Assembly: GCA_017463585.1 (NCBI GenBank)
Contig: JAFTOX010000007.1
Coordinates: forward strand, 35,533-99,532
DNA length: 64,000 bases
DNA from: Rikenellaceae bacterium
Lineage (GTDB): Bacteria; Bacteroidota; Bacteroidia; Bacteroidales; Rikenellaceae
Direction of reading: 5' to 3'
The notes beneath the pieces were generated by a model that was given only the letters and a program-made list of their open reading frames with translations, ran no database searches and had not been told where the DNA came from. This document shows, one piece after another, positions 1 to 20,205 of this stretch (within the stretch, counting starts at the first letter, position 1; every line of letters starts with the position of its first letter). The position numbers and the translations under genes are program-made.

Positions 1-2376
1 GTGGTTACCCGTACCGCCACCGCCGCTACCAACTTCGATAGCCTCGCTGGGCAGAGTCTTGATCTCGGTGCTCTGGAACGTGCCGCTGAAACCGATCGAC
101 CAATGCCAATTCTCGGTCTGAACGGGGATCAGGTTCAACGAAACCTCGACACCCTTGTTCTCCATCGAGCCGATGTTCTGATATACGTAGTTCGAGAAGT
201 TGCCACCCAGAGGCACAGCAACGCGCGAAATCAGGTCGTCGGTCTGACGCAGGTAAGCATCAACAGTACCGTTGATACGGCCATTGATGAAACCGAAGTC
301 CAAGCCGACGTTATAGGTAGTGGTCTCCTCCCACTTCAACGACTCGTTGAATGCGTGAGGCTTCACGGGGAAGTAGAAACCGTCGCCCAGAGGATACTGG
401 TTGGTAGGCTCCTGCGAGATCTCCGAGTACTGCTGAGCAGCGTAGTTCTCGCCAAACTCCTGCTGACCGGTTACACCCCAGCCCAAACGCAGTTTCAGAG
501 CCGACAATGCGCGCGAGTCCTTCAAGAACTTCTCCTCGCCGATGTTCCAAGCGAAGGCTGCCGAGGGGAAGTAACCCCAACGGTTCTTGCCAACGAAGCG
601 CGACGAACCGTCGGCACGCATCGTAACGGTGAACAGATAGCGCGAAGCGATCGAGTAATTAACACGACCATAGAACGATACCAACGCATTGCGATACGAA
701 GGCGCGGTGTTCGAGATCAGCGTCGAGTTGCCATCGAGGTCGGTACGACCGTAGTTCCACGACTTGGTCTTCGAGTAGTTCATCGACCACGAGTAACCTG
801 CCATCACGTTGATATTGTGGATACCCACCTCCTTAGCGTAGTTGGCGTAGAACTCCAACAGCTGGTTGCGGTGCAGGTTCTCATACTTATCGAAACGACC
901 GAAGGTCTTGTATGCACCGTCCGAGTCGCGGTTAGCAAAGATCGAACCCGGCAGGTTGCCCTTGTCGCCCTTGGTCTTGGTGATATCCAGACCTAAGTTC
1001 AGATTGAGGCTCAGATCCTCGAAACCGTGGATCTTATAGTCGAGCTGCAAGTTACCCAATGCGCGGTACGAGTTGTTGCGATCGTACTTGTCGTAGAGGG
1101 TCGAGAAGGGGTTGATCGGAGCCAGATCGGTCGACCAATTCCAGAAACCGTTGTTCGTAGCGTAGTCGATTGCGCCGTCAGCGTTGTAGATGTAGGGGCT
1201 CTGAGTAGGATCGAACGATACGGCTGCACCTACGGCACCTGCATCGGCGTAGTTACTCTTGTTGTAGATACCCTTAGCGTTCAGGTTTACCGACAGATGA
1301 TCGGTGAAGAACTTGGGCGAGAGGTTTACGTCCAACGTAACACGCTGGTTGTCCGAGCCCTTCAACGTACCCTGATCGTAGGTATAACCTGCCGAGAAAC
1401 GGTAGGGAAGCTCGTCGCCATAACCGAATGCACCGGTTACCGATACGTTGTGGTCGGTAGCCATAGCCAGACGGAAGATCTCCTTCTGCCAATCGGTGTT
1501 AGCCGTGCCAAACAGATCGGCAGCCTTCTGACCACCTACCTGAACAGCATACTCTCTGAACTCGTCAGCCGACATCATATCGAGAGTCTTGTGGTTGTGC
1601 TTAACGCTTGCGCTACCGTTGTACGATACGCGGGGGCAACCATCTTGACCCTTCTTGGTGGTGATCAGAATGACACCATTCGATGCGCGCGAACCGTAGA
1701 TTGCGGTAGCCGAAGCGTCCTTCAATACGGTGAACGAAGCGATGTCGTTGGGATTGACCATCGACAGGCCGTTAGCCATACCCGGACCAGCCTCGTTTGC
1801 AACGGGCACACCATCGATAACGATCAACGGGTTGTTGTTAGCCGACAGCGAAGCGCCACCACGGATACGGATCTCAGCACCCTCACCCGGTGCACCGCTA
1901 CCCGACGTGATATTCACGCCCGGCACCTTACCACGCAACATCTCCTGCGGCGAGGTCAGCGCACCACGGTTGATCTCCTCGGCCTTCACAGCCACAACCG
2001 AACCGGTCATATCGTTCTTTTTAACAGCACCGTAACCGATCACGACGATCTCTTCGAGCGACATCAAGTCCTCTTCGAGAACCACGCGCGACAGCACGGT
2101 CGAGGTTGCAACCAACTCAACGGTCTTATAGCCGATATAGCTGACGCTGATGATCGACTTCGGATCGCTAACATTGAGCACATACTGACCATTGAGGTCG
2201 GTCGTAACTCCGTTGGTTGTACCCACTTCGGCAACGGCAGCACCCAGCACGGGATCACCGGCTGCGTCGACTACCACGCCCTTAATCTGCAATTTACCGC
2301 TCTGGGCAACTGCAAGAGTGGGGGTTGTGATGCTAAACAACATCAAACCCAAGCACATAGCGAGAATTTTTCTCAT
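1..2376 (-). CDS. susC: SusC/RagA TonB-dependent transporter, 5' part (runs off the left edge); starch/maltodextrin type likely
   Basis: Not in the ORF track (no stop in window); translated by hand from ATG at 2376: MRKILAMCLGLMLFSITT..., GVVVDAAGDPVLGAAV, VVIGYGAVKKNDMTGSV, NNNPLIVIDGVP, GMANGLSMVNPNDIASFTVLKDASATAIYGSRASNGVILITTKKG. The + strand ORFs here are antisense shadows. Confidence 0.95.
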   Translation of the reverse strand, partial: MRKILAMCLGLMLFSITTPTLAVAQSGKLQIKGVVVDAAGDPVLGAAVAEVGTTNGVTTDLNGQYVLNVSDPKSIISVSYIGYKTVELVATSTVLSRVVLEEDLMSLEEIVVIGYGAVKKNDMTGSVVAVKAEEINRGALTSPQEMLRGKVPGVNITSGSGAPGEGAEIRIRGGASLSANNNPLIVIDGVPVANEAGPGMANGLSMVNPNDIASFTVLKDASATAIYGSRASNGVILITTKKGQDGCPRVSYNGSASVKHNHKTLDMMSADEFREYAVQVGGQKAADLFGTANTDWQKEIFRLAMATDHNVSVTGAFGYGDELPYRFSAGYTYDQGTLKGSDNQRVTLDVNLSPKFFTDHLSVNLNAKGIYNKSNYADAGAVGAAVSFDPTQSPYIYNADGAIDYATNNGFWNWSTDLAPINPFSTLYDKYDRNNSYRALGNLQLDYKIHGFEDLSLNLNLGLDITKTKGDKGNLPGSIFANRDSDGAYKTFGRFDKYENLHRNQLLEFYANYAKEVGIHNINVMAGYSWSMNYSKTKSWNYGRTDLDGNSTLISNTAPSYRNALVSFYGRVNYSIASRYLFTVTMRADGSSRFVGKNRWGYFPSAAFAWNIGEEKFLKDSRALSALKLRLGWGVTGQQEFGENYAAQQYSEISQEPTNQYPLGDGFYFPVKPHAFNESLKWEETTTYNVGLDFGFINGRINGTVDAYLRQTDDLISRVAVPLGGNFSNYVYQNIGSMENKGVEVSLNLIPVQTENWHWSIGFSGTFQSTEIKTLPSEAIEVGSGGGGTGNH

Positions 2377-2458
2377 AAGAGCTTTTAGTTATTAGTTAAT
2401 ATTATAGGTAATTTGTCTTTACTCCTTATATATAATATAACGCACCTTCTTATGCAGA

Positions 2459-3784
2459 TTAGGCCTCAACCTCCTCGCGCTTCTCGCGAACGAAGGCTAC
2501 CGACACGGCTGCCAGCAACATAAATACGCCCGCCAAAGCCAACATACTCATCGGCGACGAACCGAACAGATGCTCGACGATCATACCGCCCGTCAAACCG
2601 ATAACGATCTGCGGAATGGTGATCGTAAAGTTGAAGATACCCATATATACACCCATACGACGTGCATCAACCGCGCGCGAAAGGATTGCATAAGGCATTG
2701 CCAGAATACCAGCCCAAGCCACGCCGATACCCACCATCGGGATCATCTGCGCATATTGGTCGGTAGTAACACACAGACCCAAGAAACCGAGCGCACCGCA
2801 CAGCAGGCACAGAGCATAGACCAGCTTATTGCCCCAACGAGCAGCGATCTTGTCGATGAACAGCGCAGCGATACAAGCCGGAATGGGATAGATACCGTTG
2901 AGCACGCCTACCCACGTCTGGGTCTGACCGGCCGAAAGCAGTTCGCCCGTCTCGTGGCTCACAACCACACCCGTAATTGCGGGTTTGAGGTAGGTCCACA
3001 TCAGGAACAGAGCTGCCCACGAGAAGAACTGCACCACGCCCAACTGCAACATCACCTTAGGCACGTTGCGCAGCAACTCAACGAACGACGGCTTATGCTC
3101 GTCTTCGGCCTCAACGGGCTGGTTGTTGTAGCGAGCAAACTCCTCGGGAGGATACTCCTTGGTGCGGAATACGGTTACCAGAACGGTTGCCAACAAGATT
3201 GCACCACCGATGTAGTACGACCAAGCGATGTGCTGGGGTACTTGACCGGGGATCACCTCGTCCGACACACCGCAGTGGGTCAGAATCAGCGGCAGCACAG
3301 CACCGACAACGGCACCCAAGTTGATCAGGAAGGTCTGCACGACATAGCCCTTGGTCTTCTGCGAGTCATCGAGCATATCGGCCACCAGCGCGCGGAAGGG
3401 CTGCATCGTTACGTTGAACGAGAGATCCATAAAGAGCAGGATCAATGCACCCATCAGCAGCGGAGCGAATGCCAACAGAATCGGAGCGTTGGGCATCAGT
3501 GCCAAAGCCACTGCCGAGATGATCGCACCACCCAGAATGAAGGGGATACGGCGACCCAAGCGGGTCCAAGTACCGTCCGAGAACAGACCCACGATCGGCT
3601 GAATTACCAGACCAGCAACGGGGGCTGCCAACCAGAAGTAGCTCAGGTGCGAAAGGTCGGCACCGAGCGACTCGAAGATTGATGAAGTGTTCGAGTTTTG
3701 GAGTGAATAGCCAATCTGAACTCCGAGGAATCCGAAGCTAAGGTTCCAAATCTGCCAGAACGAAAGTTTAGGTTTTTTCTGCAT
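2459..3784 (-). CDS. MFS sugar:H+ symporter, maltose/sucrose (SLC45/MalT-like) family
   Basis: KLSFWQIWNLSFGFLGVQIGYSLQ, QPIVGLFSDGTWTRLGRRIPF, QPFRALVADML, GVYMGIFNFTITIPQI; about 12 hydrophobic segments; directly upstream of susC. Confidence 0.88.
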   Translation of the reverse strand: MQKKPKLSFWQIWNLSFGFLGVQIGYSLQNSNTSSIFESLGADLSHLSYFWLAAPVAGLVIQPIVGLFSDGTWTRLGRRIPFILGGAIISAVALALMPNAPILLAFAPLLMGALILLFMDLSFNVTMQPFRALVADMLDDSQKTKGYVVQTFLINLGAVVGAVLPLILTHCGVSDEVIPGQVPQHIAWSYYIGGAILLATVLVTVFRTKEYPPEEFARYNNQPVEAEDEHKPSFVELLRNVPKVMLQLGVVQFFSWAALFLMWTYLKPAITGVVVSHETGELLSAGQTQTWVGVLNGIYPIPACIAALFIDKIAARWGNKLVYALCLLCGALGFLGLCVTTDQYAQMIPMVGIGVAWAGILAMPYAILSRAVDARRMGVYMGIFNFTITIPQIVIGLTGGMIVEHLFGSSPMSMLALAGVFMLLAAVSVAFVREKREEVEA

Positions 3785-3807
3785 AATAGTGTAAAAATTT
3801 AGCTATA

Positions 3808-3815
3808 CAAATTTA
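3808..3815 (-). promoter_or_regulatory. Bacteroidota sigma-A -7 element (TAAATTTG) for the MFS/susC transcript
   Basis: Matches TAnnTTTG on the minus strand, 24 nt upstream of the MFS ATG. Confidence 0.7.
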
Positions 3816-3845
3816 TAATAGCATTTCCAAACCACCAATCTCAGT

Positions 3846-3898
3846 CCGACGAACGGCAAAACAAAACCGACGAACGGTCGATTTGGACGGACGAGTGT
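3846..3898. promoter_or_regulatory. Direct repeats CCGACGAACGG with 21-bp period; putative LytTR operator
   Basis: Exact copies at 3846-3856 and 3867-3877, degenerate third copy at 3888-3898; lies between the MFS promoter and the LytS/LytTR genes. Confidence 0.65.
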
Positions 3899-4058
3899 TA
3901 CGATCTAAAAAAATAAAGCGCCGTTTTCGCAACAAGATTTGGAGATTCAACAAAAAAGCCCTACCTTTATTGTCAAGATTGGACTCGACCACGAGCATCG
4001 AAACCACCAGCGATTGATCGAACCGACCGACAAGAGAGCCGTTAATGCACAACCGAGT

Positions 4059-5432
4059 ATGAAGAGAATTTCGTTTTCGACACCCGCGACAATCCACCTG
4101 TTCGCCATAGCGCACGCCGCCATCGCCGTAATCAGCCGCTTGGTCGATTATATGGACGACGTGCCGCTGACCGTGCTCACAATCTTGATGATCGTGATCA
4201 TCGCAATCCGCCAACGAATGCAGACCGAGATTACAGCAATGCTGACACTCGTCGGTACGTTCTCGGGCTACCTGCTTGGCACCTACGGAGCTACGCTCGT
4301 GTCAAGCGTCGTATCGAACCCCACCGCCGCCTCGGCCATAACCACCGCCATCGTCACCGAATTGCTCGGTTGGTCGGTCTATGGCATCTCCTCACTCAAA
4401 AGCCTCCGCTCGATGCACGCCAATACGTGGAGCCCTTCGATCCCGCAGCTGGCTCTGGTCGCCGCCGCAATTCTGTTGCTGCGCGTTTCGTATTCGCTCA
4501 TCTTCAACTCGTCATACTTCTCGCAATCGAGTATCTACCCCGAGTTCAACCGTATGATGAGCAACACATTCGCAATGGTCGTGCTCGTCTGCGGCAACGT
4601 GATTCTGGTCGGGTTCGGACGACTGCCAAAACGTCTGCGTGATTTGCAAAATGCGCTGAACGTAATCCTCGTCACGCTCTTCTCGGTTGCCATCACCTTC
4701 ATCGTCTACTACGACCTGCCCAGCGGCGGCGAGAGTATCTTCGCAGGACTACCCTTCTTGCGTCAATATGCCGTTGTGTTGCTGGCCGATATGGTTGTGT
4801 TTGCGGTCTTTACGCTGATTGGCCACCTCTACACCTCGCAGGACGAGCTGCGTACCGAACGAGGCAAAAAGCACCTCGCGCAGTTCCAATACAACAAGCT
4901 CAAAATGCAGATCAACCCCCATTTTCTGTTCAATTCGCTCAATATTCTCGACTATCTGGTGCAGGAGGGACAGACCGAGCGCGCGAGCGCATTCATTCGT
5001 AAGCTGGCCGATTCGTATCGCTATATGCTCAAAACCGAGGACGAACCTCTCGTTACGTTGCAAGAGGAGATCGATTTCGCCCACAAATACTCCGAGCTAC
5101 TGCAAGAGCGTTTTGCGAGTGGCTTCACTGTTCACTATCAGATTGACGACCAACTACTTAGCCGTAGCATTGTGCCGTGTTGTCTGCAACTTCTCATCGA
5201 GAACGCCACCAAGCACAACATCGTCAGCCCCGAGCGTCCGCTGACCATCTTCGTCTGCGCCGAGGGCGACACGCTGACCGTGCGCAACAATATCCAACCG
5301 CGAATTACCGCCCAAGCCTCGACGGGCACGGGTCTGAAAAATATCCGACAACAATATCTCGACATTTGCAATCGTCCGATCTCGGTCGAAAAGACGCAAA
5401 GTGAATTTATCGTAAATATACCACTACTATGA
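4059..5432 (+). CDS. LytS-family sensor histidine kinase (His_kinase PF06580 type) with a multi-TM N-terminus
   Basis: LKMQINPHFLFNSLN, VPCCLQLLIENATKHN, STGTGLKNI; the ATG at 4059 (MKRISF) is preferred over the ORF-track TTG at 3939. Confidence 0.92.
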   Translation: MKRISFSTPATIHLFAIAHAAIAVISRLVDYMDDVPLTVLTILMIVIIAIRQRMQTEITAMLTLVGTFSGYLLGTYGATLVSSVVSNPTAASAITTAIVTELLGWSVYGISSLKSLRSMHANTWSPSIPQLALVAAAILLLRVSYSLIFNSSYFSQSSIYPEFNRMMSNTFAMVVLVCGNVILVGFGRLPKRLRDLQNALNVILVTLFSVAITFIVYYDLPSGGESIFAGLPFLRQYAVVLLADMVVFAVFTLIGHLYTSQDELRTERGKKHLAQFQYNKLKMQINPHFLFNSLNILDYLVQEGQTERASAFIRKLADSYRYMLKTEDEPLVTLQEEIDFAHKYSELLQERFASGFTVHYQIDDQLLSRSIVPCCLQLLIENATKHNIVSPERPLTIFVCAEGDTLTVRNNIQPRITAQASTGTGLKNIRQQYLDICNRPISVEKTQSEFIVNIPLL

Positions 5433-6211
5433 GAACCTATAATGTACTAATCATCGAGGACGAGATCCCCGCACAAGCCAACCTCCGCCGCGCCATCGAA
5501 CGACAGTTCGACGATCTGCGCGTGGTGGGTGTCGAGAGCTCGGTTTCGGGCGCTGTGGCGTGGCTCGGCGAGGAGCAGAACGTGGCCGATATAATCTTTA
5601 TGGACGTCGAACTTTCTGACGGTTCGTGTTTCGACATTTTCAAGCAGTGCCAAGTCAAGAGCAAGGTGATCATCACCACCGCTTTCGACAACTATGCCGT
5701 TCAGGCGTTCCGAGTGAATAGCATCGACTACCTGCTCAAACCGATTGACCCTGAGCTACTTCGTGCAGCTGTTGATCGCTGTCGCACCGCCTTGGAGGCT
5801 GCGGCGGGGAGCAGTGCACCGTTCAATTTCGAGGCTCTGCGCAACGCGCTCAACCCTGAGGCAAACTCGTACAAAAAGCGTTTTGTGGTCAAGTTTGGCG
5901 ACCGATTGTCGGTCATCGACACCTCGCAGATTGCCTATTTCTATGCCGAAGATAAGAGCAACTATCTGGTTACGACCGAGAACCGTTGCTACATTCTCGA
6001 TTCGTCGCTCGACACGGTGTCGGAGCAGGTTTCGCCCAACGATTTCTTCCGCATTTCGCGCAACTGCACGGTGGCAATTCGCTCGATTGCGGGCATTTCG
6101 AAGCACCCCTCAGGTCGCTTGAAGGTTCAACTCGAACCCCGCCCGAAGTTTGAGGTCTTTGTGAGTCGCTCGCGCACCGCCGACTTCCTGCAATGGCTCG
6201 AAGGCAAATAG
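5429..6211 (+). CDS. LytTR-family response regulator
   Basis: Receiver LIIEDE...DIIFMDVELSDGSCF...TTAFD...YLLKP; LytTR output FFRISRNCTV; 4-bp overlap with the kinase. Confidence 0.95.
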   Translation: MRTYNVLIIEDEIPAQANLRRAIERQFDDLRVVGVESSVSGAVAWLGEEQNVADIIFMDVELSDGSCFDIFKQCQVKSKVIITTAFDNYAVQAFRVNSIDYLLKPIDPELLRAAVDRCRTALEAAAGSSAPFNFEALRNALNPEANSYKKRFVVKFGDRLSVIDTSQIAYFYAEDKSNYLVTTENRCYILDSSLDTVSEQVSPNDFFRISRNCTVAIRSIAGISKHPSGRLKVQLEPRPKFEVFVSRSRTADFLQWLEGK

Positions 6212-6264
6212 CTCACTCACTTACGTTTTTGCAAAACTACAATCAACTATCCCAAACGAAAACA

Positions 6265-7431
6265 ATGCAGATTTTTAATTACATAATCCTGAGTGCGATA
6301 TTCTGTCTCACGCCCGCAGTTGTTCTGTGGCTCTGTCGTCGCATTCCGTTGCTCGGCAAGATTGGTCCGATTATGGTGCTCTACGCTATTGGTATGATCA
6401 TCGGCAACCTCCCATTCATTCCCGCCGAGATCAAACCGCTGCAAGATATGATCCCCAACGTGATGGTGCCGCTGGCAATCCCGATGATGTTGTTCGGTTG
6501 CACCTTCTCGCGCAACGAGATCCGTCTGCAAGTCAAGCTCTGCCTGAGTGGTTTTCTGTCGGTCTGTCTGGCGGTTGTGATTGGCTACCTCTTCTTCGGT
6601 CGCAATGTCGAGCAGGGAGCGCAGATTGGCGGTATTCTGTCGGGAATGTACACGGGCGGTATGGTCAATGCGGCGGCGTTGCAGGCAATCTTCCGCGTCA
6701 ATAGCGAGAACTACATCTTGATGAGTTCGTACGATATTATCATCTCGTTCCTCTACTTGGTATTTTTGTTGGGTGTGGGTATTCCGATGTTCCGTTATCT
6801 GTATGGTGAGCGCAAGCGCGAGATTCCGCAGAGCGAGCAGGAGGAGCTCGACCGCCAAGCAGAAAAGAGCAACGAAAACCCCTATCGCAAGCTGCTTACA
6901 CGCGAGGGCGTCAAGCAGTTAGGCAAGATTTTGGCTCTGACGCTGGCCATTGTGGCGGTGTCGGGCGGCGTGGGTCTGCTGATGAACGAGGGGTGGTTTA
7001 TGGTTGTGTTTATTCTGCTGATTACCACGCTGGGCGTCGTGGCGTCGTTCTTCCCTTCGGTGCGAAAGATGGATATGAGCTACGACATCGGAATGTATCT
7101 GATCTATATTTTCAGCATTACGATCGCCTCGATGGCCGATTTCTCGAATCTGCATCTGGCGGGCGGAGTTAATCTGCTGATTTTTGTGATTTTGGCGGTC
7201 TTCCTCTCGTTGGTTTTTCACGCTCTCATTTGCCGCTTGATGAAGGTCGATGCCGATTCGATGATAGTCTCGTCGGTGACATTTATCAACTCGCCTCCGT
7301 TTGTGCCTATGGCCTCGGCTGCGCTGCGCAACAAGCGTACGCTGGTCACGGGATTGAGCGCAGGTATCGTCGGCTACTCCCTCGGAAACCACTTCGGAGT
7401 GCTGATGGCAAAGTTGCTGTCGATGTTGTAA
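6265..7431 (+). CDS. DUF819-family multi-pass membrane protein
   Basis: About 11 TM segments; GMYTGGMVN and SPPFVP...AALRN...LVTGLSAGIVGYSLGNHFG motifs; start at ATG 6265. Confidence 0.75.
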   Translation: MQIFNYIILSAIFCLTPAVVLWLCRRIPLLGKIGPIMVLYAIGMIIGNLPFIPAEIKPLQDMIPNVMVPLAIPMMLFGCTFSRNEIRLQVKLCLSGFLSVCLAVVIGYLFFGRNVEQGAQIGGILSGMYTGGMVNAAALQAIFRVNSENYILMSSYDIIISFLYLVFLLGVGIPMFRYLYGERKREIPQSEQEELDRQAEKSNENPYRKLLTREGVKQLGKILALTLAIVAVSGGVGLLMNEGWFMVVFILLITTLGVVASFFPSVRKMDMSYDIGMYLIYIFSITIASMADFSNLHLAGGVNLLIFVILAVFLSLVFHALICRLMKVDADSMIVSSVTFINSPPFVPMASAALRNKRTLVTGLSAGIVGYSLGNHFGVLMAKLLSML

Positions 7432-11680: not shown

Positions 11681-11911
11681 TCACAACTCCACAATGTCGT
11701 ACCACCGCCGATCGACCTCCCGCCAGAACGCCCGCCCCTCGGGCGTAGCCTCCCACTCGAATGCCTGGCTCACAAAGTAGGCCTCCTCGCCCACCGACCA
11801 CAACTCCTCGTCGAGCGCCGTGCAGTCGTTGTAGAGGTAGAAGGCACGGTCGAATGCCACCTCGCAACCCTGCTCACGCAAGAAGGCCCGAAATTGTTGG
11901 TAGCGCGACAT
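11681..11911 (-). CDS. Small hypothetical protein (76 aa) with a C-terminal FxWxxTPEGxxFW motif
   Basis: ATG start, 43 bp downstream of the EVE-HD gene on the same strand; natural-looking composition; AFEWEATPEGRAFWREVDRRW. Confidence 0.7.
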   Translation of the reverse strand: MSRYQQFRAFLREQGCEVAFDRAFYLYNDCTALDEELWSVGEEAYFVSQAFEWEATPEGRAFWREVDRRWYDIVEL

Positions 11912-11954
11912 CGTTTGCCTTGATTTCCGTTTGTCCCTTTTTGATTGTTTACCC

Positions 11955-12929
11955 CTAATTTTCGAGCTGCGACAAGTAGCCCTCGATGAACGCCAACGCC
12001 CGGGTATGTTTCTCGACGTAACGCAGGTGGTTGCCCTCGCGTCCGCGTGCCAAGTTGTGACGTAAGTCGTTCATCTTGACGTTGATAGCCGTTTGATTTC
12101 CCGATCGGCAAATGCGCTCGATATACTCCTCGTAGGGCGTCTGCTTGTCGTGCGTCAGCAGTCGCAACGCCTCGATCACCTCCGCCGTAAAACCCTCAGC
12201 CTCGATGTCGTCGAAATCGTAGTCGGTATCCTCGACCACATCGTGCAGAAAACCGACAATGCGCTCAGCGTCGTTGCGCCCCATCATACCAACAGCCAGC
12301 GGGTGCAGAATGGTCGGATTGCCGTCCAGATCGTAGTCCGCAGCGTGTGCCTTCGACGCCAATTCGATCGCCTTGTCGATGTCCGAACGCAGGTCGTAAT
12401 CCTCGTTGCGCACCGCCCGAGGCAGGTAGAACGACTTGTTGCGACCGATGTAGTCGCGCCACATAAGCTCCAAGTGCTCAGCCGTTTGACGTTCGAGCAA
12501 CACGCCCGAATGACCGTGTACCCAATCCACGTCGGGCAGTTCCTCGGTCAGCTCCTCAATCGAGATAATATCGGCACGCTCGGGGTGGAACACAGCCTCA
12601 AACTCCATCTGCATATAGTAGACCTCACGCCCCTTGCCCGTCCAATCTTCACCCTTGAACGGCTCGGAGGTGAACCTACCTGCGGCAAACACACCCGTGT
12701 TCCCCTCCCCGACACGCACCATAAAAAATCGATCACCACGTCGCGCCTGCTGCCACTCGTGCACACTCCAATCGAAATCACAATCCCACAGCCCGCGAGC
12801 CCACGCGTCCATATCCTCGTCCAAACGTCCCATCGTGTAGGACGAAATCGCAGGATTCCACCTCAGCAAGAAGGTGTTATGAGCATAGTCGCAACGTCGA
12901 TTGATCGACAATTTAATCTCCATTTCCAT
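11955..12929 (-). CDS. Fusion of an EVE-like (PUA-superfamily) domain and a small HD phosphohydrolase (Mesh1/SAH-like)
   Basis: N-half LLRWNP...DWSV...RGDRFFMVRVG..GVFAAG..TSEPF...YMQMEF...HSGVLL; C-half AIELASKAH...HPLAV...LHDVVEDT...ALRLLTH...VKMNDLRHNL. Confidence 0.75.
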   Translation of the reverse strand: MEMEIKLSINRRCDYAHNTFLLRWNPAISSYTMGRLDEDMDAWARGLWDCDFDWSVHEWQQARRGDRFFMVRVGEGNTGVFAAGRFTSEPFKGEDWTGKGREVYYMQMEFEAVFHPERADIISIEELTEELPDVDWVHGHSGVLLERQTAEHLELMWRDYIGRNKSFYLPRAVRNEDYDLRSDIDKAIELASKAHAADYDLDGNPTILHPLAVGMMGRNDAERIVGFLHDVVEDTDYDFDDIEAEGFTAEVIEALRLLTHDKQTPYEEYIERICRSGNQTAINVKMNDLRHNLARGREGNHLRYVEKHTRALAFIEGYLSQLEN

Positions 12930-12972
12930 TGTTTTGTGTATTATTTTTCTCGTTTTTCACACTATTCGGGGA

Positions 12973-13009
12973 CAAAGGTATCGGCCGTTTTTGACAATTA
13001 GTGTCAAAA
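12973..13009 (-). promoter_or_regulatory. Promoter (-7 TACCTTTG, 12973-12980) with palindromic operator TTTTGACA-N5-TGTCAAAA (12989-13009)
   Basis: Perfect 8-bp inverted repeat with 5-bp spacer, 8 nt upstream of a consensus -7 box pointing at the EVE-HD gene. Confidence 0.8.
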
Positions 13010-13054
13010 TGCGTTTCTGCGCGAATAATTTTCGCCCGCCCAACTCCTGAGCGC

Positions 13055-13089
13055 AAAAAATCCCCGCAACCACTCTCTTGTTGCGGGGA
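13055..13089 (-). terminator. Intrinsic terminator of the WYL gene, overlapping a second promoter unit
   Basis: Minus strand TCCCCGCAAC-9nt-GTTGCGGGGA-TTTTTT. Confidence 0.8.
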
Positions 13090-13125
13090 CAAAATTACGG
13101 GTCGATTTTGACAATTACTGTCAAA
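13090..13125 (-). promoter_or_regulatory. Second promoter/operator unit (-7 TAATTTTG, 13090-13097; TTTGACA-N5-TGTCAAA within 13106-13125)
   Basis: Same palindrome core and same 8-nt gap to a TAnnTTTG box as the unit at 12973-13009. Confidence 0.72.
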
Positions 13126-13155
13126 CCTCGTCCAACTCTCAAATATTTTTATCGG

Positions 13156-14058
13156 TTAAAACTTCGCACGGATACGTTCAGCCGCGCCACGCACATACTC
13201 CTCGAATTCGGGCGTCAGAATGCGGATATCCTCCGCAAGTCCCAACACAAAACGACCCACTCCGACATAGTCGCACACCATCGTATCGAGCAGCCAATGC
13301 GCCTCGTCGATCTGCGTCAAATCGCGCACCGCCAGCGGATACTCCTCAACGAGCAGATTGTGCGCCATCACCCCCAATTCGAGCTGCACGCGCGACTGCT
13401 CAAAGCCCGAAATGCGGAAAATATCGATGTAACCCTCGTGGTGCAGCTCGCCAAATTGCCACCTCTCAGCCAGCACCTCGACCGAGCCGATTCGCGCCGT
13501 ATTGAAGAGCTTATTCAGTCCCGACTCAGGCTCGTAGCACCACACCTGCACGTAGTTGGTCGTGAAGCCGAACGGCTCAACCAACCGATCCCTCACCACG
13601 CCCGTATGCGACGAGGCATAACTCCTCAATATCACCTGTTTACGCTCGGTAATAGCCTCAACCAAATGGTTGACATTGATGGCATTTCGACCCTCGACAA
13701 CACACTCCGCCAGCGCCGTACAGTTGTAGACCGAGGTCAATTTTCGACGCAGATTTTGTTTGAGCAGATTGGTATTGTCGAGCCCTTCGATGAGCTGATT
13801 TACGATGTGCGCCTCCTCGTCGGTGAAGTGAATGAGCTGCGAAATCTCCTTGAAATAGCGACTCTCACGACCGAGCTTATAGACGCCGCCCGCCTTGCGC
13901 TGAACGACAAAACCGGCATTGCGAAAGGTCTCGATATAGCGGTAGATGGAGCGATAGGAGGTACCCAGGCGCTCGGCCATTTCGTCGATGGTGTAGTTGT
14001 TGTTTGCGGTCATCATCTTCATCAGTCGCAACACGCGCTCGATCTTCGGCTGGTCCAT
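13156..14058 (-). CDS. HTH-WYL-WCX transcriptional regulator
   Basis: N-terminal HTH (YTIDEMAERLGTSYRSIYRYIETFRNAGF), WYL core (YASSHTGVVRDRLVEPF...WCYE...KLFNTARI). Confidence 0.92.
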   Translation of the reverse strand: MDQPKIERVLRLMKMMTANNNYTIDEMAERLGTSYRSIYRYIETFRNAGFVVQRKAGGVYKLGRESRYFKEISQLIHFTDEEAHIVNQLIEGLDNTNLLKQNLRRKLTSVYNCTALAECVVEGRNAINVNHLVEAITERKQVILRSYASSHTGVVRDRLVEPFGFTTNYVQVWCYEPESGLNKLFNTARIGSVEVLAERWQFGELHHEGYIDIFRISGFEQSRVQLELGVMAHNLLVEEYPLAVRDLTQIDEAHWLLDTMVCDYVGVGRFVLGLAEDIRILTPEFEEYVRGAAERIRAKF

Positions 14059-14176: not shown

Positions 14177-14196
14177 TTTGACATACGTTTGTCAAA
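14177..14196. promoter_or_regulatory. Third TTTGACA...TGTCAAA palindrome (6-bp spacer) in the WYL/CHASE2 divergent region
   Basis: TTTGACA-TACGTT-TGTCAAA. Confidence 0.5.
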
Positions 14197-14395
14197 CGTC
14201 GCAGTGCTTAAACGCAGCGCAGCGCCGACATTCCAAGACGATTTTGCGAGCAAGACCTTCGCGCTCATTTCCCCGATCCGCCCAAATACCGCACGAAAAC
14301 CGACAAACTTTTTGCAAAAAGTGCATAGAGTCAGACTTGTTTGTAAAAAAATCATTACCTTTGTTCTATAAAGTCACCATTTCTAAATCCTCGAT

Positions 14396-15616
14396 ATGAG
14401 TACTAAAAATAAAACCACTGAGAGTGGTTCCACTTTTTGGGCTGCATACAAGTCCGAATTCAAGGTGGCGGTTATTGTGACAATCATCACAACAATCTTC
14501 GCTTTGGCAGGTGGAAACTTTATTATGGGGTTGTTCTCTCCGATTTCGGGCAATAGCGACTTCCAATTTTCGGATCTCTATTGCAAGGTTGCAAACAAAT
14601 TGGAGGATAATCCCAACAGTCGCAACATCACCATCATTGCCACCGACTCGCTCATCGAGCGTGAGCACTTGGCCGAAGCGATTGATTTCATTGGTCAGTT
14701 TGGTCCGAAAGTTCTGGGTATCGACATTCATTTCGCACAACCGCAGGATAGCCTGAGCGACCTGATGTTGATCTCGGCACTGAGCAGCTGCAATTGCAAT
14801 CTGGTCTTCCCCAACCCGCTCTACCAAGACGAATTCGGACATATACAAGAGGATCAGAAAACTTTCCTTAGCCCATTCCTGTCGAACGCTTCGTACGGCG
14901 CTACAAACTATACGATCAACTCGAATTGGGGTCCTACGCGCAAATTCGAAACCTCGTTCGATGGTGAGTTCGAGGCATTTCCGTCGTTTGCGTCGGAGAT
15001 AGCACGCATAGTCAACGAGGATCAGCACTACGCCCTGCTGGCCCGCAACGTGAAGTATGAGCGCAAATGGGAGTATATCAACTACATCGTTTCGCAGGGT
15101 TTCGACACACGTGTACTGACATTGCAGGACATCAGCGACCCCGACAAATATGCCGACTATGAGCACCTGATCAAGAATCGCATTGTGTTGCTCGGCGACA
15201 TCTACAACCCCAACGATATGCACACCACGCCGTACGACAAAGCGGTGGCAGGTATCTACATACACGCGCACGCGCTGGATACGATTCTTCAAGGTGCATA
15301 CTACCAAGAGATTCCCAAAGCGCTGCTGTACGTCATTTCGATAATCTGCTGTCTGCTCTTCACCTCGTTCTCGCTCGCGTTGAAGGAGTCGCACAAAGAG
15401 GTAAGCGGTCTGGTAATCCGTATCACGCAGGCAGTTTTGATGCTTTTGATCTACTGGATCGGCTGCGAACTCTATCTGCAACAGATCTATTTCGACCCCG
15501 TCGTGCTGATCCTGATGATCGTTGCCATTCCGTTCACGACAGATATCTATCAAGGAGCAAAGGGTTTATATCACAACATAATCAGAGAATTAAAGAAAAG
15601 GTTAAAGGAGAATTAA
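14396..15616 (+). CDS. Stand-alone CHASE2-domain membrane protein (no cytoplasmic output domain)
   Basis: N-terminal TM; GPKVLGIDIHF; IKNRIVLLGD...DMHTTP...AGIYIHAHALDTIL; three C-terminal TMs and a short basic tail; TACCTTTG -7 box at 14356-14363. Confidence 0.85.
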   Translation: MSTKNKTTESGSTFWAAYKSEFKVAVIVTIITTIFALAGGNFIMGLFSPISGNSDFQFSDLYCKVANKLEDNPNSRNITIIATDSLIEREHLAEAIDFIGQFGPKVLGIDIHFAQPQDSLSDLMLISALSSCNCNLVFPNPLYQDEFGHIQEDQKTFLSPFLSNASYGATNYTINSNWGPTRKFETSFDGEFEAFPSFASEIARIVNEDQHYALLARNVKYERKWEYINYIVSQGFDTRVLTLQDISDPDKYADYEHLIKNRIVLLGDIYNPNDMHTTPYDKAVAGIYIHAHALDTILQGAYYQEIPKALLYVISIICCLLFTSFSLALKESHKEVSGLVIRITQAVLMLLIYWIGCELYLQQIYFDPVVLILMIVAIPFTTDIYQGAKGLYHNIIRELKKRLKEN

Positions 15617-15632
15617 AAAAACAAGTAATACT

Positions 15633-16463
15633 ATGAAAAGCTACATTACACTATTAATTACACTCTTGTTCTCGGCGAGCGTTTGCGCTCAATCGACAGG
15701 CGCAGCCTACAAGATCAAGAACATCTCGGGTGGCGCCACGCTGATGGTAGGCAAAACGGAGAAGCATTTGCAGATTGGCGACGTACTGCGTCTTTCGGAC
15801 CACATCAAGTTGCAGAGTGGCAGCAAGATCACCATTATGCAGATCGAACGACCGAACAAGGTTTTCAGCTATGCCGATAGCGACGTCAAATCGGTCTATC
15901 ACATCATTCTCGATTCGAGCGACAAGAGCAACAGCACCTTCCGCGAAATGTGCTCAACCGTAGTAAGCCACAACAAAAAGGAGACAAAGAGTATCATCTC
16001 TCGCCCGTTGCAGGTTGAGCGTGGTCAAGATGAGGTGAACAACGCCTACGATGCGCTGGTCTATTCGGCAATTAAAAAGTCGATTAAGGATCTGCTGAGC
16101 AACTCGCTCTCGAAGGATCGTGCCGATGTCGAGATCTCGCGCACGGCGGTGGTTGACGACGAGTTCTCGTTCATTCTCCGCAAGAAGAGCGCAACGGCAC
16201 AGTATATCAACATTCTCTATGTCGATACTCAGGGCAACTACGACTTTTGCTTCGATGACAATATTCTGATCGACGGCAAACTGAAAAAGGATTGCGATAT
16301 GCAATTCAAATTCGACGCGTCGAGCAGCAGTCTTACCTTTATGGTTATCGCCACCTCGCAGAACTTTGACGTCGAGAACGTCCGAAAGTCGATTAGCGCC
16401 GAGGAGGCTGCATCATTCATAATCATTGATCAAGAGAACATTATCGTCACACTCGAAAGATAG
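15633..16463 (+). CDS. Secreted hypothetical protein (N-terminal beta-rich domain, C-terminal Ig-like/DUF4384-like domain)
   Basis: Signal peptide MKSYITLLITLLFSASVCA-Q; lies between the CHASE2 and CHAT genes with 16- and 7-bp gaps; domain calls tentative. Confidence 0.6.
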   Translation: MKSYITLLITLLFSASVCAQSTGAAYKIKNISGGATLMVGKTEKHLQIGDVLRLSDHIKLQSGSKITIMQIERPNKVFSYADSDVKSVYHIILDSSDKSNSTFREMCSTVVSHNKKETKSIISRPLQVERGQDEVNNAYDALVYSAIKKSIKDLLSNSLSKDRADVEISRTAVVDDEFSFILRKKSATAQYINILYVDTQGNYDFCFDDNILIDGKLKKDCDMQFKFDASSSSLTFMVIATSQNFDVENVRKSISAEEAASFIIIDQENIIVTLER

Positions 16464-16470
16464 CATTCGT

Positions 16471-19050
16471 ATGAAACGTGTTGTTAGGGCTATTCTCATT
16501 TCGGTTTTGATCTTTGGACAGTGCGAGTTGGGCTTTGCGCAGGAGATGTCGATCAAAGATCAGATTAGCATTCACGCTTTCCAATATAACCAGGCAATCA
16601 TAGCCCATAACTACTCTAAGGCCATCGAGCACCAATTTGCAATCGCAATGCTCCACGCTCAGGACTATGGCGAGGACCATATTAAATATGCGATCGAGTT
16701 GGGCAAACTCGCTCGACTCTATTCCCATATCGGCGATATCGAACAAGCTCGCGAATACAATCGTCAAGCGATCGGCATAATGGAGGCAGGCGGTCATCAG
16801 AAGGAGAAGAATTATATCACGATGATCGAGGATATGGCGAGCTGGTGCATTCAGGTTGGCGATAACGCTGGCGCTGAGCACTATACGCTCGTGGCCGAGA
16901 AACTCGAAAAGGAGTCAGGTGTGGCTGAAAAGAGCCCGGTACGTCTGTTCAATCAGGGCAGATTGCTTTTGAACAACAAGGATTACAAAGGAGCTCTGGC
17001 GAAATTCGAAGAGGCAAAAAAACACTCCACTCCCGGCTCGACGCAATATGCCACGATCATCGGCACAATCGGCGACGTTTATGGCGCTATGGGCGATTCG
17101 GACACTGCCCTCCAACACTACACCGAGGCTACCGATATGTTGTTCGAGCAGGAGGATCCCAGCCTTCTCGAATATAAGAACTATGCGACGCTGCTGCATA
17201 ATATCGGCGTTGAGTACCTCAATATGAGCCAATACCAATTGGCATACGAGTGCTTCCTCCGCACAAAGAATGTGCAGCAGGAGTTTATGGGCAACGAGCA
17301 CCCCGACTATACCCGATCGCTGCACGGTCTTATACAGGTGGCTCGTCCGCTTGGCGTAAATTACACAGACTATGCATTCGAGCTCTACAATAATTGTAAG
17401 AACGAAATCCGCAAGAACTTCCGCTTCCTGACCGAGAAGGCACGCGAGCAGAATATCCACAACATCTACGACGACTACTTCAATACGCTTTACGCGGCAG
17501 CTCTGTACAAGACAAGAGTGCATATGCCCGATATGGCGAAGCTGTTGTACAACACCGCTCTATTGTCGAAGGGTCTGTTGCTGAGTACCTCAATCGAGTT
17601 CAAGCAGATGATCGAGGAGACCGAGGACCCGCTGATGTTGGAGAAGTACAACGATCTGCGTAGCGTTCAACGACAGATCGATGCCGAAAAACAGAAACCT
17701 ATTAGCGAGCGTAGCCAACACCTCGCCTACCTCGAACAGCAGGCTCAACAGCTTGAAACCGAATTGATGCGCGACGTCAAGGCCATCGGCGACTACACCA
17801 GCAACCTCGACCTCACGTGGGAGGATATCGCTCAGTCGCCATATTTAGGTGCAAACGACGTAGCAGTCGAATTTGTAAATACCAGCAACGGCGCTCGCGA
17901 CTATGCAATTGCCGTTCTGCGAAAAGGCTGGCCCGCACCCAAAGTCTTTCCTATCGGCCGCGAACTCGATCTGATCTCGATGATCGGCTCGTCAGAGAAC
18001 CCCACAGGAGATTTAGACGTGGTTCAGAATGGAATCTACAACGACAACCGCCTCTACGAGAAGATTTGGGAGCCTATCAAAGATTATATCCACGAAGGCG
18101 ACCGAATCTATTTTGCACCTTCGGGTCTGCTGCACTCGGTGGCATTGGAGTACCTGCCCGTCAACAAGAAGGGCACGGTGCGTATGTGCGACATCTACCA
18201 GATGTTCCGTTGTTCGTCAACCCGCCGTATTGCATTTGACACCTTCCAGTCGGGCGTACCCGTTGCACACCTCTATGGCGACATCAACTACCAATTGAAC
18301 GAGATGGATATGCAGTTCCATCAGGACAATATCACCCGTGCAAATCAACTTCGTGGCAACGATGCCTCTACCGAAGCCTCTACGACCAGAGGTCTGAGAA
18401 GTATCAGCCGCCCGTCGAATACCTATTGGTCACACCTCGAAGGTAGCCGCAAGGAGATTGAGGAGATTGAACCACTGCTTAAATCAGCTCGCTCTATTAA
18501 TCTTTCGGTGGTAACTCACACCAAGTCGGCAGCAGTTGAAGGTAGCATTAAGGCACTTTCGGGCAAGCGTAGCAAGATTATTCACATCGCAACGCACGGC
18601 TACTATAACAACCAATCCGACGCCAATAACAAGGAGCACTCAAATTCGCTCACGCGTTCGGCACTGATCTTTGCAGGCGCAAGCAACGACAAACTCTATG
18701 AGGGTATGGACGATGGATATTTGACAGCCGAGGAGATCTCGTTGCTCGACCTGCGTGGCACCGACCTCGTCGTACTGTCGGCGTGCCAGTCGGGACAGGG
18801 TAAGGCTATTGGTGCCGAGGGTCTTGATGGCTTGCAGCGTGCATTCAAAAAGGCAGGTGTCAAGACGCTGATTGTGAGCCTTTGGGACGTTAATGATACT
18901 GTAACACAGAAGATTATGGTTTCGTTCTACAAGTATTATTCCGAGGGTTATAATTGGCGCAAATCGTTTGAGCTCGCCCTGGACGACATTCGCCGCAACC
19001 GCGAATATAAGGCTCCGAAATATTGGGCACCCTTCGTAATGATCGACTAA
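16471..19050 (+). CDS. Secreted TPR + CHAT (caspase-like, clan CD) protease
   Basis: Start MKRVVRAILISVLIFGQCELGFA-QE (signal peptide); TPR helices; catalytic IIHIATHG and LVVLSACQSG; GLQRAFKKAGVKTLIVSLWDVND; PKYWAPFVMID. Confidence 0.92.
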   Translation: MKRVVRAILISVLIFGQCELGFAQEMSIKDQISIHAFQYNQAIIAHNYSKAIEHQFAIAMLHAQDYGEDHIKYAIELGKLARLYSHIGDIEQAREYNRQAIGIMEAGGHQKEKNYITMIEDMASWCIQVGDNAGAEHYTLVAEKLEKESGVAEKSPVRLFNQGRLLLNNKDYKGALAKFEEAKKHSTPGSTQYATIIGTIGDVYGAMGDSDTALQHYTEATDMLFEQEDPSLLEYKNYATLLHNIGVEYLNMSQYQLAYECFLRTKNVQQEFMGNEHPDYTRSLHGLIQVARPLGVNYTDYAFELYNNCKNEIRKNFRFLTEKAREQNIHNIYDDYFNTLYAAALYKTRVHMPDMAKLLYNTALLSKGLLLSTSIEFKQMIEETEDPLMLEKYNDLRSVQRQIDAEKQKPISERSQHLAYLEQQAQQLETELMRDVKAIGDYTSNLDLTWEDIAQSPYLGANDVAVEFVNTSNGARDYAIAVLRKGWPAPKVFPIGRELDLISMIGSSENPTGDLDVVQNGIYNDNRLYEKIWEPIKDYIHEGDRIYFAPSGLLHSVALEYLPVNKKGTVRMCDIYQMFRCSSTRRIAFDTFQSGVPVAHLYGDINYQLNEMDMQFHQDNITRANQLRGNDASTEASTTRGLRSISRPSNTYWSHLEGSRKEIEEIEPLLKSARSINLSVVTHTKSAAVEGSIKALSGKRSKIIHIATHGYYNNQSDANNKEHSNSLTRSALIFAGASNDKLYEGMDDGYLTAEEISLLDLRGTDLVVLSACQSGQGKAIGAEGLDGLQRAFKKAGVKTLIVSLWDVNDTVTQKIMVSFYKYYSEGYNWRKSFELALDDIRRNREYKAPKYWAPFVMID

Positions 19051-19076: not shown

Positions 19077-19105
19077 AAGCGGCTACGAATTGTTCGTAGC
19101 CGCTT
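19077..19105. terminator. Bidirectional terminator hairpin (near-identical copy at 44264-44291)
   Basis: AAGCGGCTACGAA-TTG-TTCGTAGCCGCTT flanked by A and T runs. Confidence 0.8.
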
Positions 19106-19140: not shown

Positions 19141-20205
19141 CTACTCCCAACCTGTCAGCGCCGCAAATTGCTCGATCACAATCTTGGCCATCTTCTCCTG
19201 ACCGTAGCGATTGGGGTGTCCCGACGCACCAAGATCGGTCGTATCGTTATAGACATCTTTCGAGATATCGGCCATCGCCGTATTCGGAATCGTCGCAACC
19301 ATCTCCTTCACGCACTCAACCGCAAAGGGCGAATGTACCACGCACAGCACGGGTAGCTCCGCACCCCAAGCCTCGCGCAGACGCTCGATCAGCGCTCGGT
19401 AGCCCGCAACATACTGCTCCTCGGTGGGTCGGGGCATCGTGCTGAAATCGTTAGTACCCAGCGTGATAACTATTGCGTCGGGGCGATAGGGACTCTTCTC
19501 GAAATCCCAATCACAGGAAAAATCCTCGTCGTAGAGGCGGAATGCACGCGCGCTCATCGTGAGGTCGTGATCCGACACCTGCAACGAATCGCCATAGTTG
19601 CGCACCAGACCGCGTCCCGAGTGCGAGATCAATGTATAATCGGCGTCGAAACGCTCGGCCGTCAGTGCTGCGTATGTATAGCGGCAGTTCTCGGTTTCGG
19701 GCAGGAAGGGATCGGTACCCGAATTGCTCTCGGTGCCATAGCCGCAAGTGAGCGAATCGCCATAGAACTCGATGTGGCGGGCGCGTTTCAACTCGTCGGT
19801 CGAGAGCAGACGTCCGTCGGTCGTAATCGTATGCAGCGTAATGCGTCCCTGCTCGGCCTCGGTCGCCTTCTGGATACGCACCACGTGCTCGCCCTTAGCC
19901 TCGGGGTTATCAAAAAGCACAAGCGTCGTGTGCTCGCCCTCGGAGGTCAGTTTGGGTTGTTCCTCGCCATCGATCCACACATTGAGGTAGTTACGTTTCG
20001 TGTCGCTCAGCTCGATAGCCAAGTACGAACCACGAAAACGGATATCGACATAGACACCGCTCCAATCGAACGAGATCGAGCCATCGTCGTGCGTCAGGGT
20101 ACGTCCCACCACGCGGGCGGGCGAATCAGCCACAGAGGTGGTCTTCTGCCCACCGCAGCTGCCAAGCAGCGAACACATCAAAGTCAAAATCAGCAGTCGT
20201 TTCAT
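19141..20205 (-). CDS. SGNH/GDSL esterase lipoprotein, CE2-like (probable O-acetylesterase)
   Basis: Lipobox LLGSC; IEFYGDSLTCGYG; ITLGTNDF; GHPN. Confidence 0.88.
   Translation of the reverse strand: MKRLLILTLMCSLLGSCGGQKTTSVADSPARVVGRTLTHDDGSISFDWSGVYVDIRFRGSYLAIELSDTKRNYLNVWIDGEEQPKLTSEGEHTTLVLFDNPEAKGEHVVRIQKATEAEQGRITLHTITTDGRLLSTDELKRARHIEFYGDSLTCGYGTESNSGTDPFLPETENCRYTYAALTAERFDADYTLISHSGRGLVRNYGDSLQVSDHDLTMSARAFRLYDEDFSCDWDFEKSPYRPDAIVITLGTNDFSTMPRPTEEQYVAGYRALIERLREAWGAELPVLCVVHSPFAVECVKEMVATIPNTAMADISKDVYNDTTDLGASGHPNRYGQEKMAKIVIEQFAALTGWE

Follow-up and report, generated by a model that had tools for sequence, protein, structure and literature searches.

A CHASE2-partner-CHAT cassette in a gut Rikenellaceae bacterium, probably a protein-cutting switch outside the cytoplasm

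What a caspase-fold protease bearing a signal peptide might do beside a CHASE2 membrane protein that lacks an output domain is the question raised by three co-directional open reading frames (ORFs) on the plus strand of a 64,000-nt stretch of DNA from a Rikenellaceae bacterium (GenBank assembly GCA_017463585.1, contig JAFTOX010000007.1, positions 35,533 to 99,532; hereafter the window). The ORFs occupy positions 14396-15616 (406 aa), 15633-16463 (276 aa), and 16471-19050 (859 aa) of the window, and their products, as read from sequence, are a CHASE2 membrane protein without an output domain, a secreted protein of an unnamed family that we call X, and a caspase-like TPR-CHAT protease that is likewise secreted. 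For all three, the predicted site of residence or action is outside the cytoplasm, and the cassette that they form is probably a protein-cutting switch in that compartment. The cassette is real, conserved, and uncharacterised, and it is built from known domains; full-text literature searches returned no description of a CHASE2-partner-CHAT cassette.

CHASE2 is among the commonest extracytoplasmic sensor domains of bacteria, and to our knowledge it has neither a known ligand nor a solved structure. Bacterial caspase-fold proteases are currently understood as cytoplasmic enzymes of immunity and cell death. By placing in one compartment, on prediction, a CHASE2 domain, a protease of the caspase fold, and a dedicated secreted partner whose exposed arginine is conserved, the cassette offers a direct route both to what CHASE2 senses and to whether bacteria run periplasmic caspase-type switches, with the output-less form representing a minimal version of the system.

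The three products and their predicted compartment

The first gene (14396..15616, plus strand) was assigned from Pfam, hydropathy, and an AlphaFold model to an output-less CHASE2 membrane protein of 406 aa. Its match to PF05226 (CHASE2) scored 74.7 bits against a cut-off of 26.3 (E 1.1e-20) and covered residues 54-322 and positions 17-254 of the 257-position profile. The protein consists, in order, of a first transmembrane (TM) helix, a periplasmic CHASE2 domain (~54-305), three further TM helices, and a 22-aa basic tail on the cytoplasmic side. The four hydrophobic peaks in the hydropathy profile (26-44, 309-327, 339-361, and 364-384) agree with helices 14-50, 308-332, 337-361, and 369-405 of the AlphaFold model (predicted local distance difference test score, pLDDT, 77), so that by both methods an extracytoplasmic domain lies between a single N-terminal TM helix and three TM helices on its C-terminal side. 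Since both termini are rich in Lys and Arg, the CHASE2 domain is predicted to face the periplasm. The C-terminus ends only 22 residues past TM4, indicating that the protein has no cytoplasmic output domain; in signalling receptors of the cyclase, kinase, and GGDEF types, such a domain would follow the third C-terminal TM helix.

Standalone homologues of this protein are 366-428 aa long, compared with ~730 aa for the cyclase-fused forms in other classes of the phylum. Seven residues (D60, D110, R182, G267, D274, G286, and A291) are common to standalone CHASE2 proteins and CHASE2-cyclases; as these are also the invariant positions of the cyclase-fused forms, we consider the domain a genuine CHASE2 domain. 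A degenerate caspase-like or other known fold was rejected, since a Foldseek search of the model against the PDB gave nothing below E 0.2.

The second gene (15633..16463, plus strand) encodes X (276 aa), which had no match in Pfam, NCBIfam, or PADLOC and was defined from its sequence, an AlphaFold model, and its gene neighbourhood. Its N-terminus, MKSYITLLITLLFSASVCA|Q20, has the n-region, h-region, and Ala-Gln junction of a predicted Sec/signal peptidase I signal peptide (residues 1-19, cut VCA|Q20; 15633..15689, plus strand). The Ala-Gln junction is also found in the closest X homologue (46% identity), and an N-terminal hydrophobic signal is kept in every X homologue examined, usually with Gln next after the predicted cut. 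The AlphaFold models of both X and CHASE2 are built on shallow alignments; that of X (pLDDT 74, nine-sequence alignment) has a beta domain (26-80), a long helix (88-117), and a disordered linker (119-135), followed by a helix (135-155) and an Ig-like sandwich (166-241). A Foldseek search with the X model against the PDB yielded no match at E<1e-3 and only generic Ig/FN3-like sandwiches.

Across the 23-24 members of the X family, the N-terminal domain and first helix are constant and the C-terminal part is variable. The latter is an Ig-like sandwich in the clade of the window, while the C-terminal half aligns differently in other orders, with weak sub-threshold fn3 and TPR matches in some members. 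Only two columns are nearly invariant, Gly33 and Arg130. The Arg130 codon (16020..16022, plus strand), a candidate site of cleavage by the protease, lies in the sequence Q-V-E-R-G (family motif G-x-V-x-R), is conserved at >=90% in alignment A3 (23 sequences), and is present in 22 of 24 sequences. In the AlphaFold model it falls in the predicted disordered linker, where pLDDT is <50, a position that fits cleavage of the partner and, on sequence and model, makes Arg130 a plausible cleavage site. The two members without it are an L030-type protein, from a locus that has no CHAT gene, and its relative on a 962-bp contig (L022); from these two sequences, the loss of Arg130 alongside the absence of CHAT is only a hint.

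Known families were also considered for X. A FecR-like identity (PF04773) was rejected, as there was no Pfam match (E<=10 in nine members, E<=0.1 in nine more) and an hhalign comparison of the X N-domain with 23 Bacteroidales FecR domains gave a probability of 4.9%. Similarity to DUF928 came down to one sub-threshold match (E 0.083) in one X member; a DUF928 search of 33 genomes, that of the window included, matched nothing, and neither did control genomes, so that this search is uninformative either way. DUF4384 was found in the C14 proteins that neighbour some X genes and not in X itself.

The third gene (16471..19050, plus strand) encodes, by Pfam, a secreted TPR-CHAT caspase-fold cysteine protease, which is 859 aa long when counted from the ATG at 16471 (the ORF list begins at an upstream TTG, 16426). 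Its N-terminus, MKRVVRAILISVLIFGQCELGFA|Q24, again has an n-region, an h-region, and an Ala-Gln junction and is a predicted signal peptide (residues 1-23, cut GFA|Q24; 16471..16539, plus strand). A signal peptide with Gln at +1 is also present in the CHAT proteins of four homologous loci (L015, L023, L024, and L026), and every full-length CHAT or C14 partner examined carries a signal peptide, the CHAT partners with Gln at +1. With their Ala-Gln junctions, the signal peptides of X and the protease fit the Bacteroidetes Q-rule (PMC5837995), by which substrates of signal peptidase I have Gln at +1. A good lipobox is missing from both proteins, as is a C-terminal domain of the type IX secretion system (T9SS), and in the protease the CHAT domain extends to the C-terminus, leaving no T9SS sorting domain; from sequence reading and conservation, both are hence predicted to be soluble periplasmic proteins.

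Downstream of the signal peptide, the protease has a TPR array (~residues 55-265; 16633..17265, plus strand) matched by Pfam TPR_12 (E 5.6e-19), TPR_1, TPR_2, and TPR_8, and a CHAT domain (PF12770, residues 526-858; 18046..19044, plus strand) that scored 154.5 bits (E 5.3e-45) over positions 5-287 of the 289-position profile. The catalytic His709 (codon 18595..18597, plus strand; motif HIATH709G) and Cys772 (codon 18784..18786, plus strand; motif LSAC772QS) are invariant in five triad-encoded CHAT sequences. From its sequence the dyad is intact. The initial annotation of this locus had proposed both the intact His-Gly and Ser-Ala-Cys motifs and the Sec signal peptides ending in Ala-Gln on X and the protease, and both are confirmed by reading of the sequence.

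A PDB sequence search with the protease matched kinesin-light-chain TPRs only, DdvA and Csx29 not being among the matches. The enzyme differs from Csx29 of Craspase in carrying a signal peptide, and none of the three proteins matched a CRISPR-associated model of PADLOC. It also differs from a DdvA-like anti-sigma factor, since its TPR region begins ~30 residues after the 23-aa signal peptide and no other N-terminal domain is present.

Conservation of the cassette and of the CHASE2-X pair

We next asked whether the three genes are kept together elsewhere. Word-indexed searches with X, CHASE2, and an X profile returned almost no relatives, a related-locus search of genome contigs with the protease as query returned none, and an exhaustive search of representatives was needed. 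The closest homologues, on metagenome contigs that have the same gene order (L015), comprise a CHASE2 protein of 428 aa (67% identical), an X protein of 281 aa (46%), and a TPR-CHAT protein of 860 aa (56%). The exhaustive HMMER search with X found only ten proteins, seven of which are distant full-length relatives (265-285 aa, about 19-25% identity) that we sorted into seven contig groups, or lineages. Every distant X that could be placed lies directly downstream of an output-less CHASE2 gene, often overlapping it; the 962-bp contig of L022 shows no context.

Two gene orders were observed. The window, L015, and L023 have the order CHASE2-X-CHAT, and in L024 X is followed by a signal-peptide TPR-CHAT gene, with an upstream gene that runs off the contig and is without a Pfam call but is read from its C-terminal sequence as CHASE2. 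The order CHAT-CHASE2-X is found in L026-29 and in L025, where CHAT was recognised from the HIGTHG...YWAGFIMLN end of a contig-cut upstream ORF. The L019 contig stops before any CHAT position is visible. Thus, with the window and L015 counted, six of the eight lineages hold all three genes in one of two orders, CHAT with a signal peptide; the conservation of the triad, on which the initial annotation had staked its proposal, is borne out, at identities of 19-27%.

The surroundings of these loci vary. The L023 cassette (155-6767) sits beside genes of mobile-element type (YopX, resolvase, and M48 peptidase), and the L025 cassette (3204-4352) beside a VapE-like primase-type gene. L030 (4230-11017), which has no CHAT gene, encodes, in this order, a 505-aa secreted protein (no Pfam match), CHASE2, an X without the conserved Arg, and CarbopepD_reg/Sel1 and SH3_3 proteins.

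To place the cassette more widely, we searched with a hidden Markov model (HMM) of seven standalone CHASE2 proteins, which matched in 37 of 401 Bacteroidia genomes and in 20 of 200 genera, mostly in frames of ~370-450 aa; within the order of the window, no genome matched besides that of the window itself. We then scanned the ORFs within ~8 kb on each side of standalone CHASE2 in 20 Bacteroidia genomes using locally built HMMs. An X-family gene adjoins CHASE2 in 15 of the 20. An exported caspase-fold protease is encoded within 8 kb in nine, as TPR-CHAT in five and as a signal-peptide Peptidase_C14 in four, the four Peptidase_C14 neighbours carrying DUF4384 or TPR repeats. No further neighbour recurred in the 20 loci. 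Taken together, these counts indicate that the invariant unit is the CHASE2-X pair, with the protease as a frequent, not obligatory, third component, and that the same pair has recruited two different caspase-fold families.

Several of the standalone CHASE2 loci show individual variations. In L108 (9344-11202), one CHASE2 gene is followed by two tandem X-family paralogues. Three standalone CHASE2 matches contain in-frame stops (TAA, TGA, TAG; G610:C46, G699:C16, and G099:C15) and are possibly decaying copies. In L100 (from G699) and its congener L103, the X gene next to CHASE2 is absent or present only as a 179-aa fragment.

In other classes of the phylum, CHASE2 occurs as a fusion with an adenylate or guanylate cyclase (~730 aa). 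Directly upstream of one such CHASE2-adenylate cyclase gene (L049) lies a gene whose 224-aa product matches the X model (E 2.5e-11) and has TPRs C-terminally; we assign the match to the N-terminal part that X proteins share. An X-like N-domain protein upstream of a CHASE2-cyclase ties the constant part of X to CHASE2 in general.

A proteolytic switch and the alternatives to it

How might such a cassette work? We propose that the constant N-terminal beta domain of X would dock it onto the CHASE2 domain in the periplasm, and that the TPR-CHAT protease would remain inactive until its TPR array binds a protein cue. Once activated, the protease would cut X in the exposed linker after the near-invariant Arg130 (GxVxR), and the cut would alter the state of the CHASE2-X complex. 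Because CHASE2 here has no enzymatic output, the read-out must lie in the envelope or membrane, and it could be either release of the variable C-terminal domain of X or a change in the four-helix membrane module. The initial annotation had suggested that CHASE2 receives the cleavage product, which leaves the output unexplained, given that there is no cytoplasmic output domain. We favour the whole of this reading, in which X sits on CHASE2 and a latent TPR-CHAT cuts it after Arg130 to change the CHASE2-X state, tentatively and with a confidence that stays short of even.

Precedents for single steps speak for it. Cleavage behind basic residues is known for orthocaspases (PMC6426788), and the CHAT-type enzyme separase cuts after an Arg that lies in an unstructured motif (PMC11506125). 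The sole CHASE2 receptors studied respond to a protein signal (PMC13001267), and for DdvA, a TPR-CHAT of the periplasm, cutting of a flexible linker has been proposed (PMC11506125).

DdvA is also the closest likeness among known systems, being a periplasmic TPR-CHAT with a canonical His-Cys dyad for which TPR sensing of a protein cue and cutting of an unstructured linker have been proposed (PMC11506125). The statement in the initial annotation that the characterised TPR-CHAT proteases are cytoplasmic overlooked this anti-sigma factor. However, DdvA is anchored by a TM segment, carries a cytoplasmic zinc anti-sigma domain bound to a sigma factor of the extracytoplasmic function (ECF) type, and has no three-helix active-site motif, whereas the protease described here is predicted to be soluble once its signal peptide is removed, lacks an anti-sigma domain, and is paired not with a sigma factor but with CHASE2 and X.

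Caspase-fold proteases have been linked to CHASE2 before in fusion proteins with the same 1 + 3 TM topology (Trichodesmium metacaspase-CHASE2, PMC3501461; EACC2-caspase-CHASE2, PMC8195603). In these fusions the caspase lies N-terminal to TM1, which predicts a cytoplasmic location with the membrane between it and CHASE2; in the present cassette the protease is exported as a protein of its own to the side where CHASE2 lies, and X joins as a third protein. CyaD1, CyaD2, and CyaK, which act with NsrA in Sinorhizobium meliloti, have bona fide CHASE2 domains with the same universally conserved residues, and they respond to a protein signal for which an accessory protein of the envelope is required (PMC13001267). 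They differ in having a cytoplasmic cyclase output and an outer-membrane beta-barrel partner, in contrast with the output-less CHASE2, X, and protease of the window.

Two further systems resemble the cassette in part. In Craspase (gRAMP-Csx29 cleaving Csx30) and SAVED-CHAT, a TPR-CHAT or CHAT protease activated by ligand binding is encoded beside its presumed protein substrate, but these enzymes are cytoplasmic and activated by CRISPR RNA or cyclic oligonucleotides, while the enzyme here has a signal peptide. No cas or CD-NTase genes lie next to the operon, the adjacent genes being WYL, EVE-HD, and CE2 esterase. The Burkholderia 'BiofilmReg' operon likewise combines a CHASE2 membrane protein with a small secreted partner (PMC5192318); its partner is a Pfam FecR protein and its CHASE2 protein a kinase, in contrast with the lack of FecR similarity in X and of a kinase domain in the CHASE2 protein described here.

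A number of observations weigh against the proposed switch. In 11 of the 20 surveyed CHASE2 loci there is no caspase-fold gene within 8 kb, and the enrichment of such genes at the pair is argued from their general rarity, not computed. Signal-peptide TPR-CHAT proteins, with many paralogues, occur in Bacteroidales genomes without CHASE2, so that exported TPR-CHATs are not confined to the cassette. Arg130 is equally conserved in X proteins from loci with no protease within 8 kb (L094, L105, L108, L109, and L111) and may be a binding or structural residue. CHAT specificity is unpredictable, and craspases cut after Met or Leu. Both the binding of X to CHASE2 and the cleavage of X are steps that we infer. 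Finally, it is hard to see how a CHASE2 protein without an output domain could transmit anything.

The first of these observations lead to the main rival explanation, namely that the locus combines two independent and loosely linked units, a self-contained CHASE2-X envelope module and a general exported TPR-CHAT that acts on other periplasmic or foreign proteins in processing, turnover, or competition. Such an arrangement would leave the pair without a nearby caspase-fold gene in many genomes, as seen in those 11, and would fit both the conservation of Arg130 where no protease is near and the spread of signal-peptide TPR-CHATs through Bacteroidales that lack CHASE2, as in G039 (L005, L013), which has 13 TPR-CHAT matches on at least nine contigs, including a full-length copy with a signal peptide (L013). 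Against it, the CHAT gene stands beside the pair in six of eight lineages of the window clade, in two gene orders and with frames that often overlap or nearly abut, and the recruitment of both CHAT and C14, which are unrelated caspase-fold families, makes chance a poor explanation. We regard two independent units as rather unlikely, though as the strongest competitor of the switch.

A second alternative is an envelope-level anti-phage or anti-competitor cassette, in which the TPRs would detect a foreign protein that enters the periplasm, the protease would activate X or CHASE2, and the four-helix module would permeabilise or depolarise the inner membrane in an abortive-infection-like response. 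The cassette is accessory (24 same-genus species and seven close relatives are without it), stands out in G+C content (49.4% vs ~55%), and lies at a synteny break; its neighbours encode an HTH-WYL regulator (PADLOC WYL, 8.7e-17) and a protein of EVE-HD type, YopX/resolvase or VapE-like genes adjoin related cassettes, and DdvA sets a precedent for a periplasmic TPR-CHAT that controls phage defence (PMC11506125). The envelope-level 'danger-sensing' put forward in the initial annotation nevertheless has no support: CHASE2 and X have no match in PADLOC-DB 2.0, and the protease has only two weak ones (E 1.7e-4 and 2e-3), which span 50-150 residues and lie outside its CHAT domain. Neither X nor CHASE2 showed a recognisable toxin-like or pore-forming fold, and the TM segments of 25 standalone CHASE2 sequences share no conserved charged residues, which lends no support to a pore. 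In other Bacteroidia, moreover, the pair sits among ordinary housekeeping-looking genes. An immune role of this kind appears improbable to us.

That the cassette is the remnant of a larger TpsA/TpsB (two-partner secretion), DUF928, CHAT, and CHASE2 cluster, whose protease would process a surface fibre and whose fibre genes would have been lost here, is very improbable. For it stand the very weak DUF928 match of the one X member and a CHASE2+DUF928 neighbourhood in Nostoc (PMC5587647); against it, no Pfam-annotated TpsA/TpsB-type gene was found among the called genes of the related loci or among the scanned neighbours, the other ORFs of the window not having been searched.

The switch, in which X is cut on CHASE2, can also be stated in a broader and more speculative form. 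X would then be a proteolytically gated ligand of CHASE2: a foreign or damaged envelope protein captured by the TPRs would activate the exported caspase-fold protease, whether TPR-CHAT or C14, and cutting of X after Arg130 would flip CHASE2, with cyclic AMP as the output in the cyclase-fused relatives and the four-helix module as the effector, through permeabilisation or dormancy, in the output-less forms. We consider this extension a long shot. If true, it would amount to a complete receptor-adaptor-caspase cascade of immune type outside the cytoplasm and would define the first CHASE2 ligand.

Operon signals and genomic setting

The initial annotation had described a tight three-gene operon, and the ORF coordinates agree, with gaps of 16 nt (15617-15632) and 7 nt (16464-16470) between the cassette genes. 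Promoters of Bacteroides have the -7 consensus TAnnTTTG. The -7 box that had been reported upstream could be read as TACCTTTG at 14356..14363 (plus strand), a Bacteroidota-type box (TAnnTTTG) 32 nt 5' of the CHASE2 ATG; a sigma-70 promoter scan is not applicable to this promoter.

The terminator stood up only in part. A GC-rich hairpin with a 13-bp stem is present at 19077..19105 (no strand assigned), between the convergent protease and CE2-esterase genes, and is likely a terminator shared by both. A clean T-run, however, is found only on its minus strand, where it serves the convergent CE2 esterase gene, and the plus-strand tail is only TTTGGTTTGG, making the hairpin a plausible but not strong terminator of the three-gene operon.

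On sequence grounds, the cassette is accessory and horizontally acquired. The genome is Alistipes-like, and the flanking genes are 98% and 95% identical at the protein level to those of a Rikenellaceae metagenome-assembled genome from goat rectum. The CHASE2 and X genes were found in none of 24 same-genus species, and the CHASE2 gene in none of seven close relatives, including one whose flank is 93.6% identical in nucleotide sequence. With the closest relatives (86-94% nucleotide identity), synteny runs from about position 30.2 kb down to position 19142 and then stops; the esterase gene ends there, immediately to the right of the hairpin at 19077-19105. To the left of 19142, nothing in the 64-kb window matches the continuation in the relatives. 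The G+C content of the operon is 49.4%, compared with ~55% on the right flank. No convincing flanking direct repeats (att-like) or tRNA were found at the borders of the cassette.

Upstream of the operon and divergent from it lie genes for an HTH-WYL regulator (PADLOC WYL, E 8.7e-17) and an EVE-HD protein. This minus-strand stretch (11681-14058) contains the HTH-WYL gene, a gene for a 324-aa protein with an HD region of RelA/SpoT type (TIGR00691, 5e-10, residues 187-259), and a 76-aa ORF, and its genes had no tblastn match in the contigs of two same-genus relatives that have the conserved right flank.

On this side of the cassette there are three copies of a TTTGACA-N5/6-TGTCAAA palindrome (12967-13008, 13084-13125, and 14177-14196). 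Two of them are contained in direct repeats of 42 nt that lie 117 nt apart and upstream of the EVE-HD operon. The third is intergenic, with the HTH-WYL gene on one side and the divergent CHASE2 operon on the other, ~160 nt upstream of the -7 box of CHASE2. The palindromes are possibly WYL operators, which could couple the EVE-HD operon and the CHASE2 operon.

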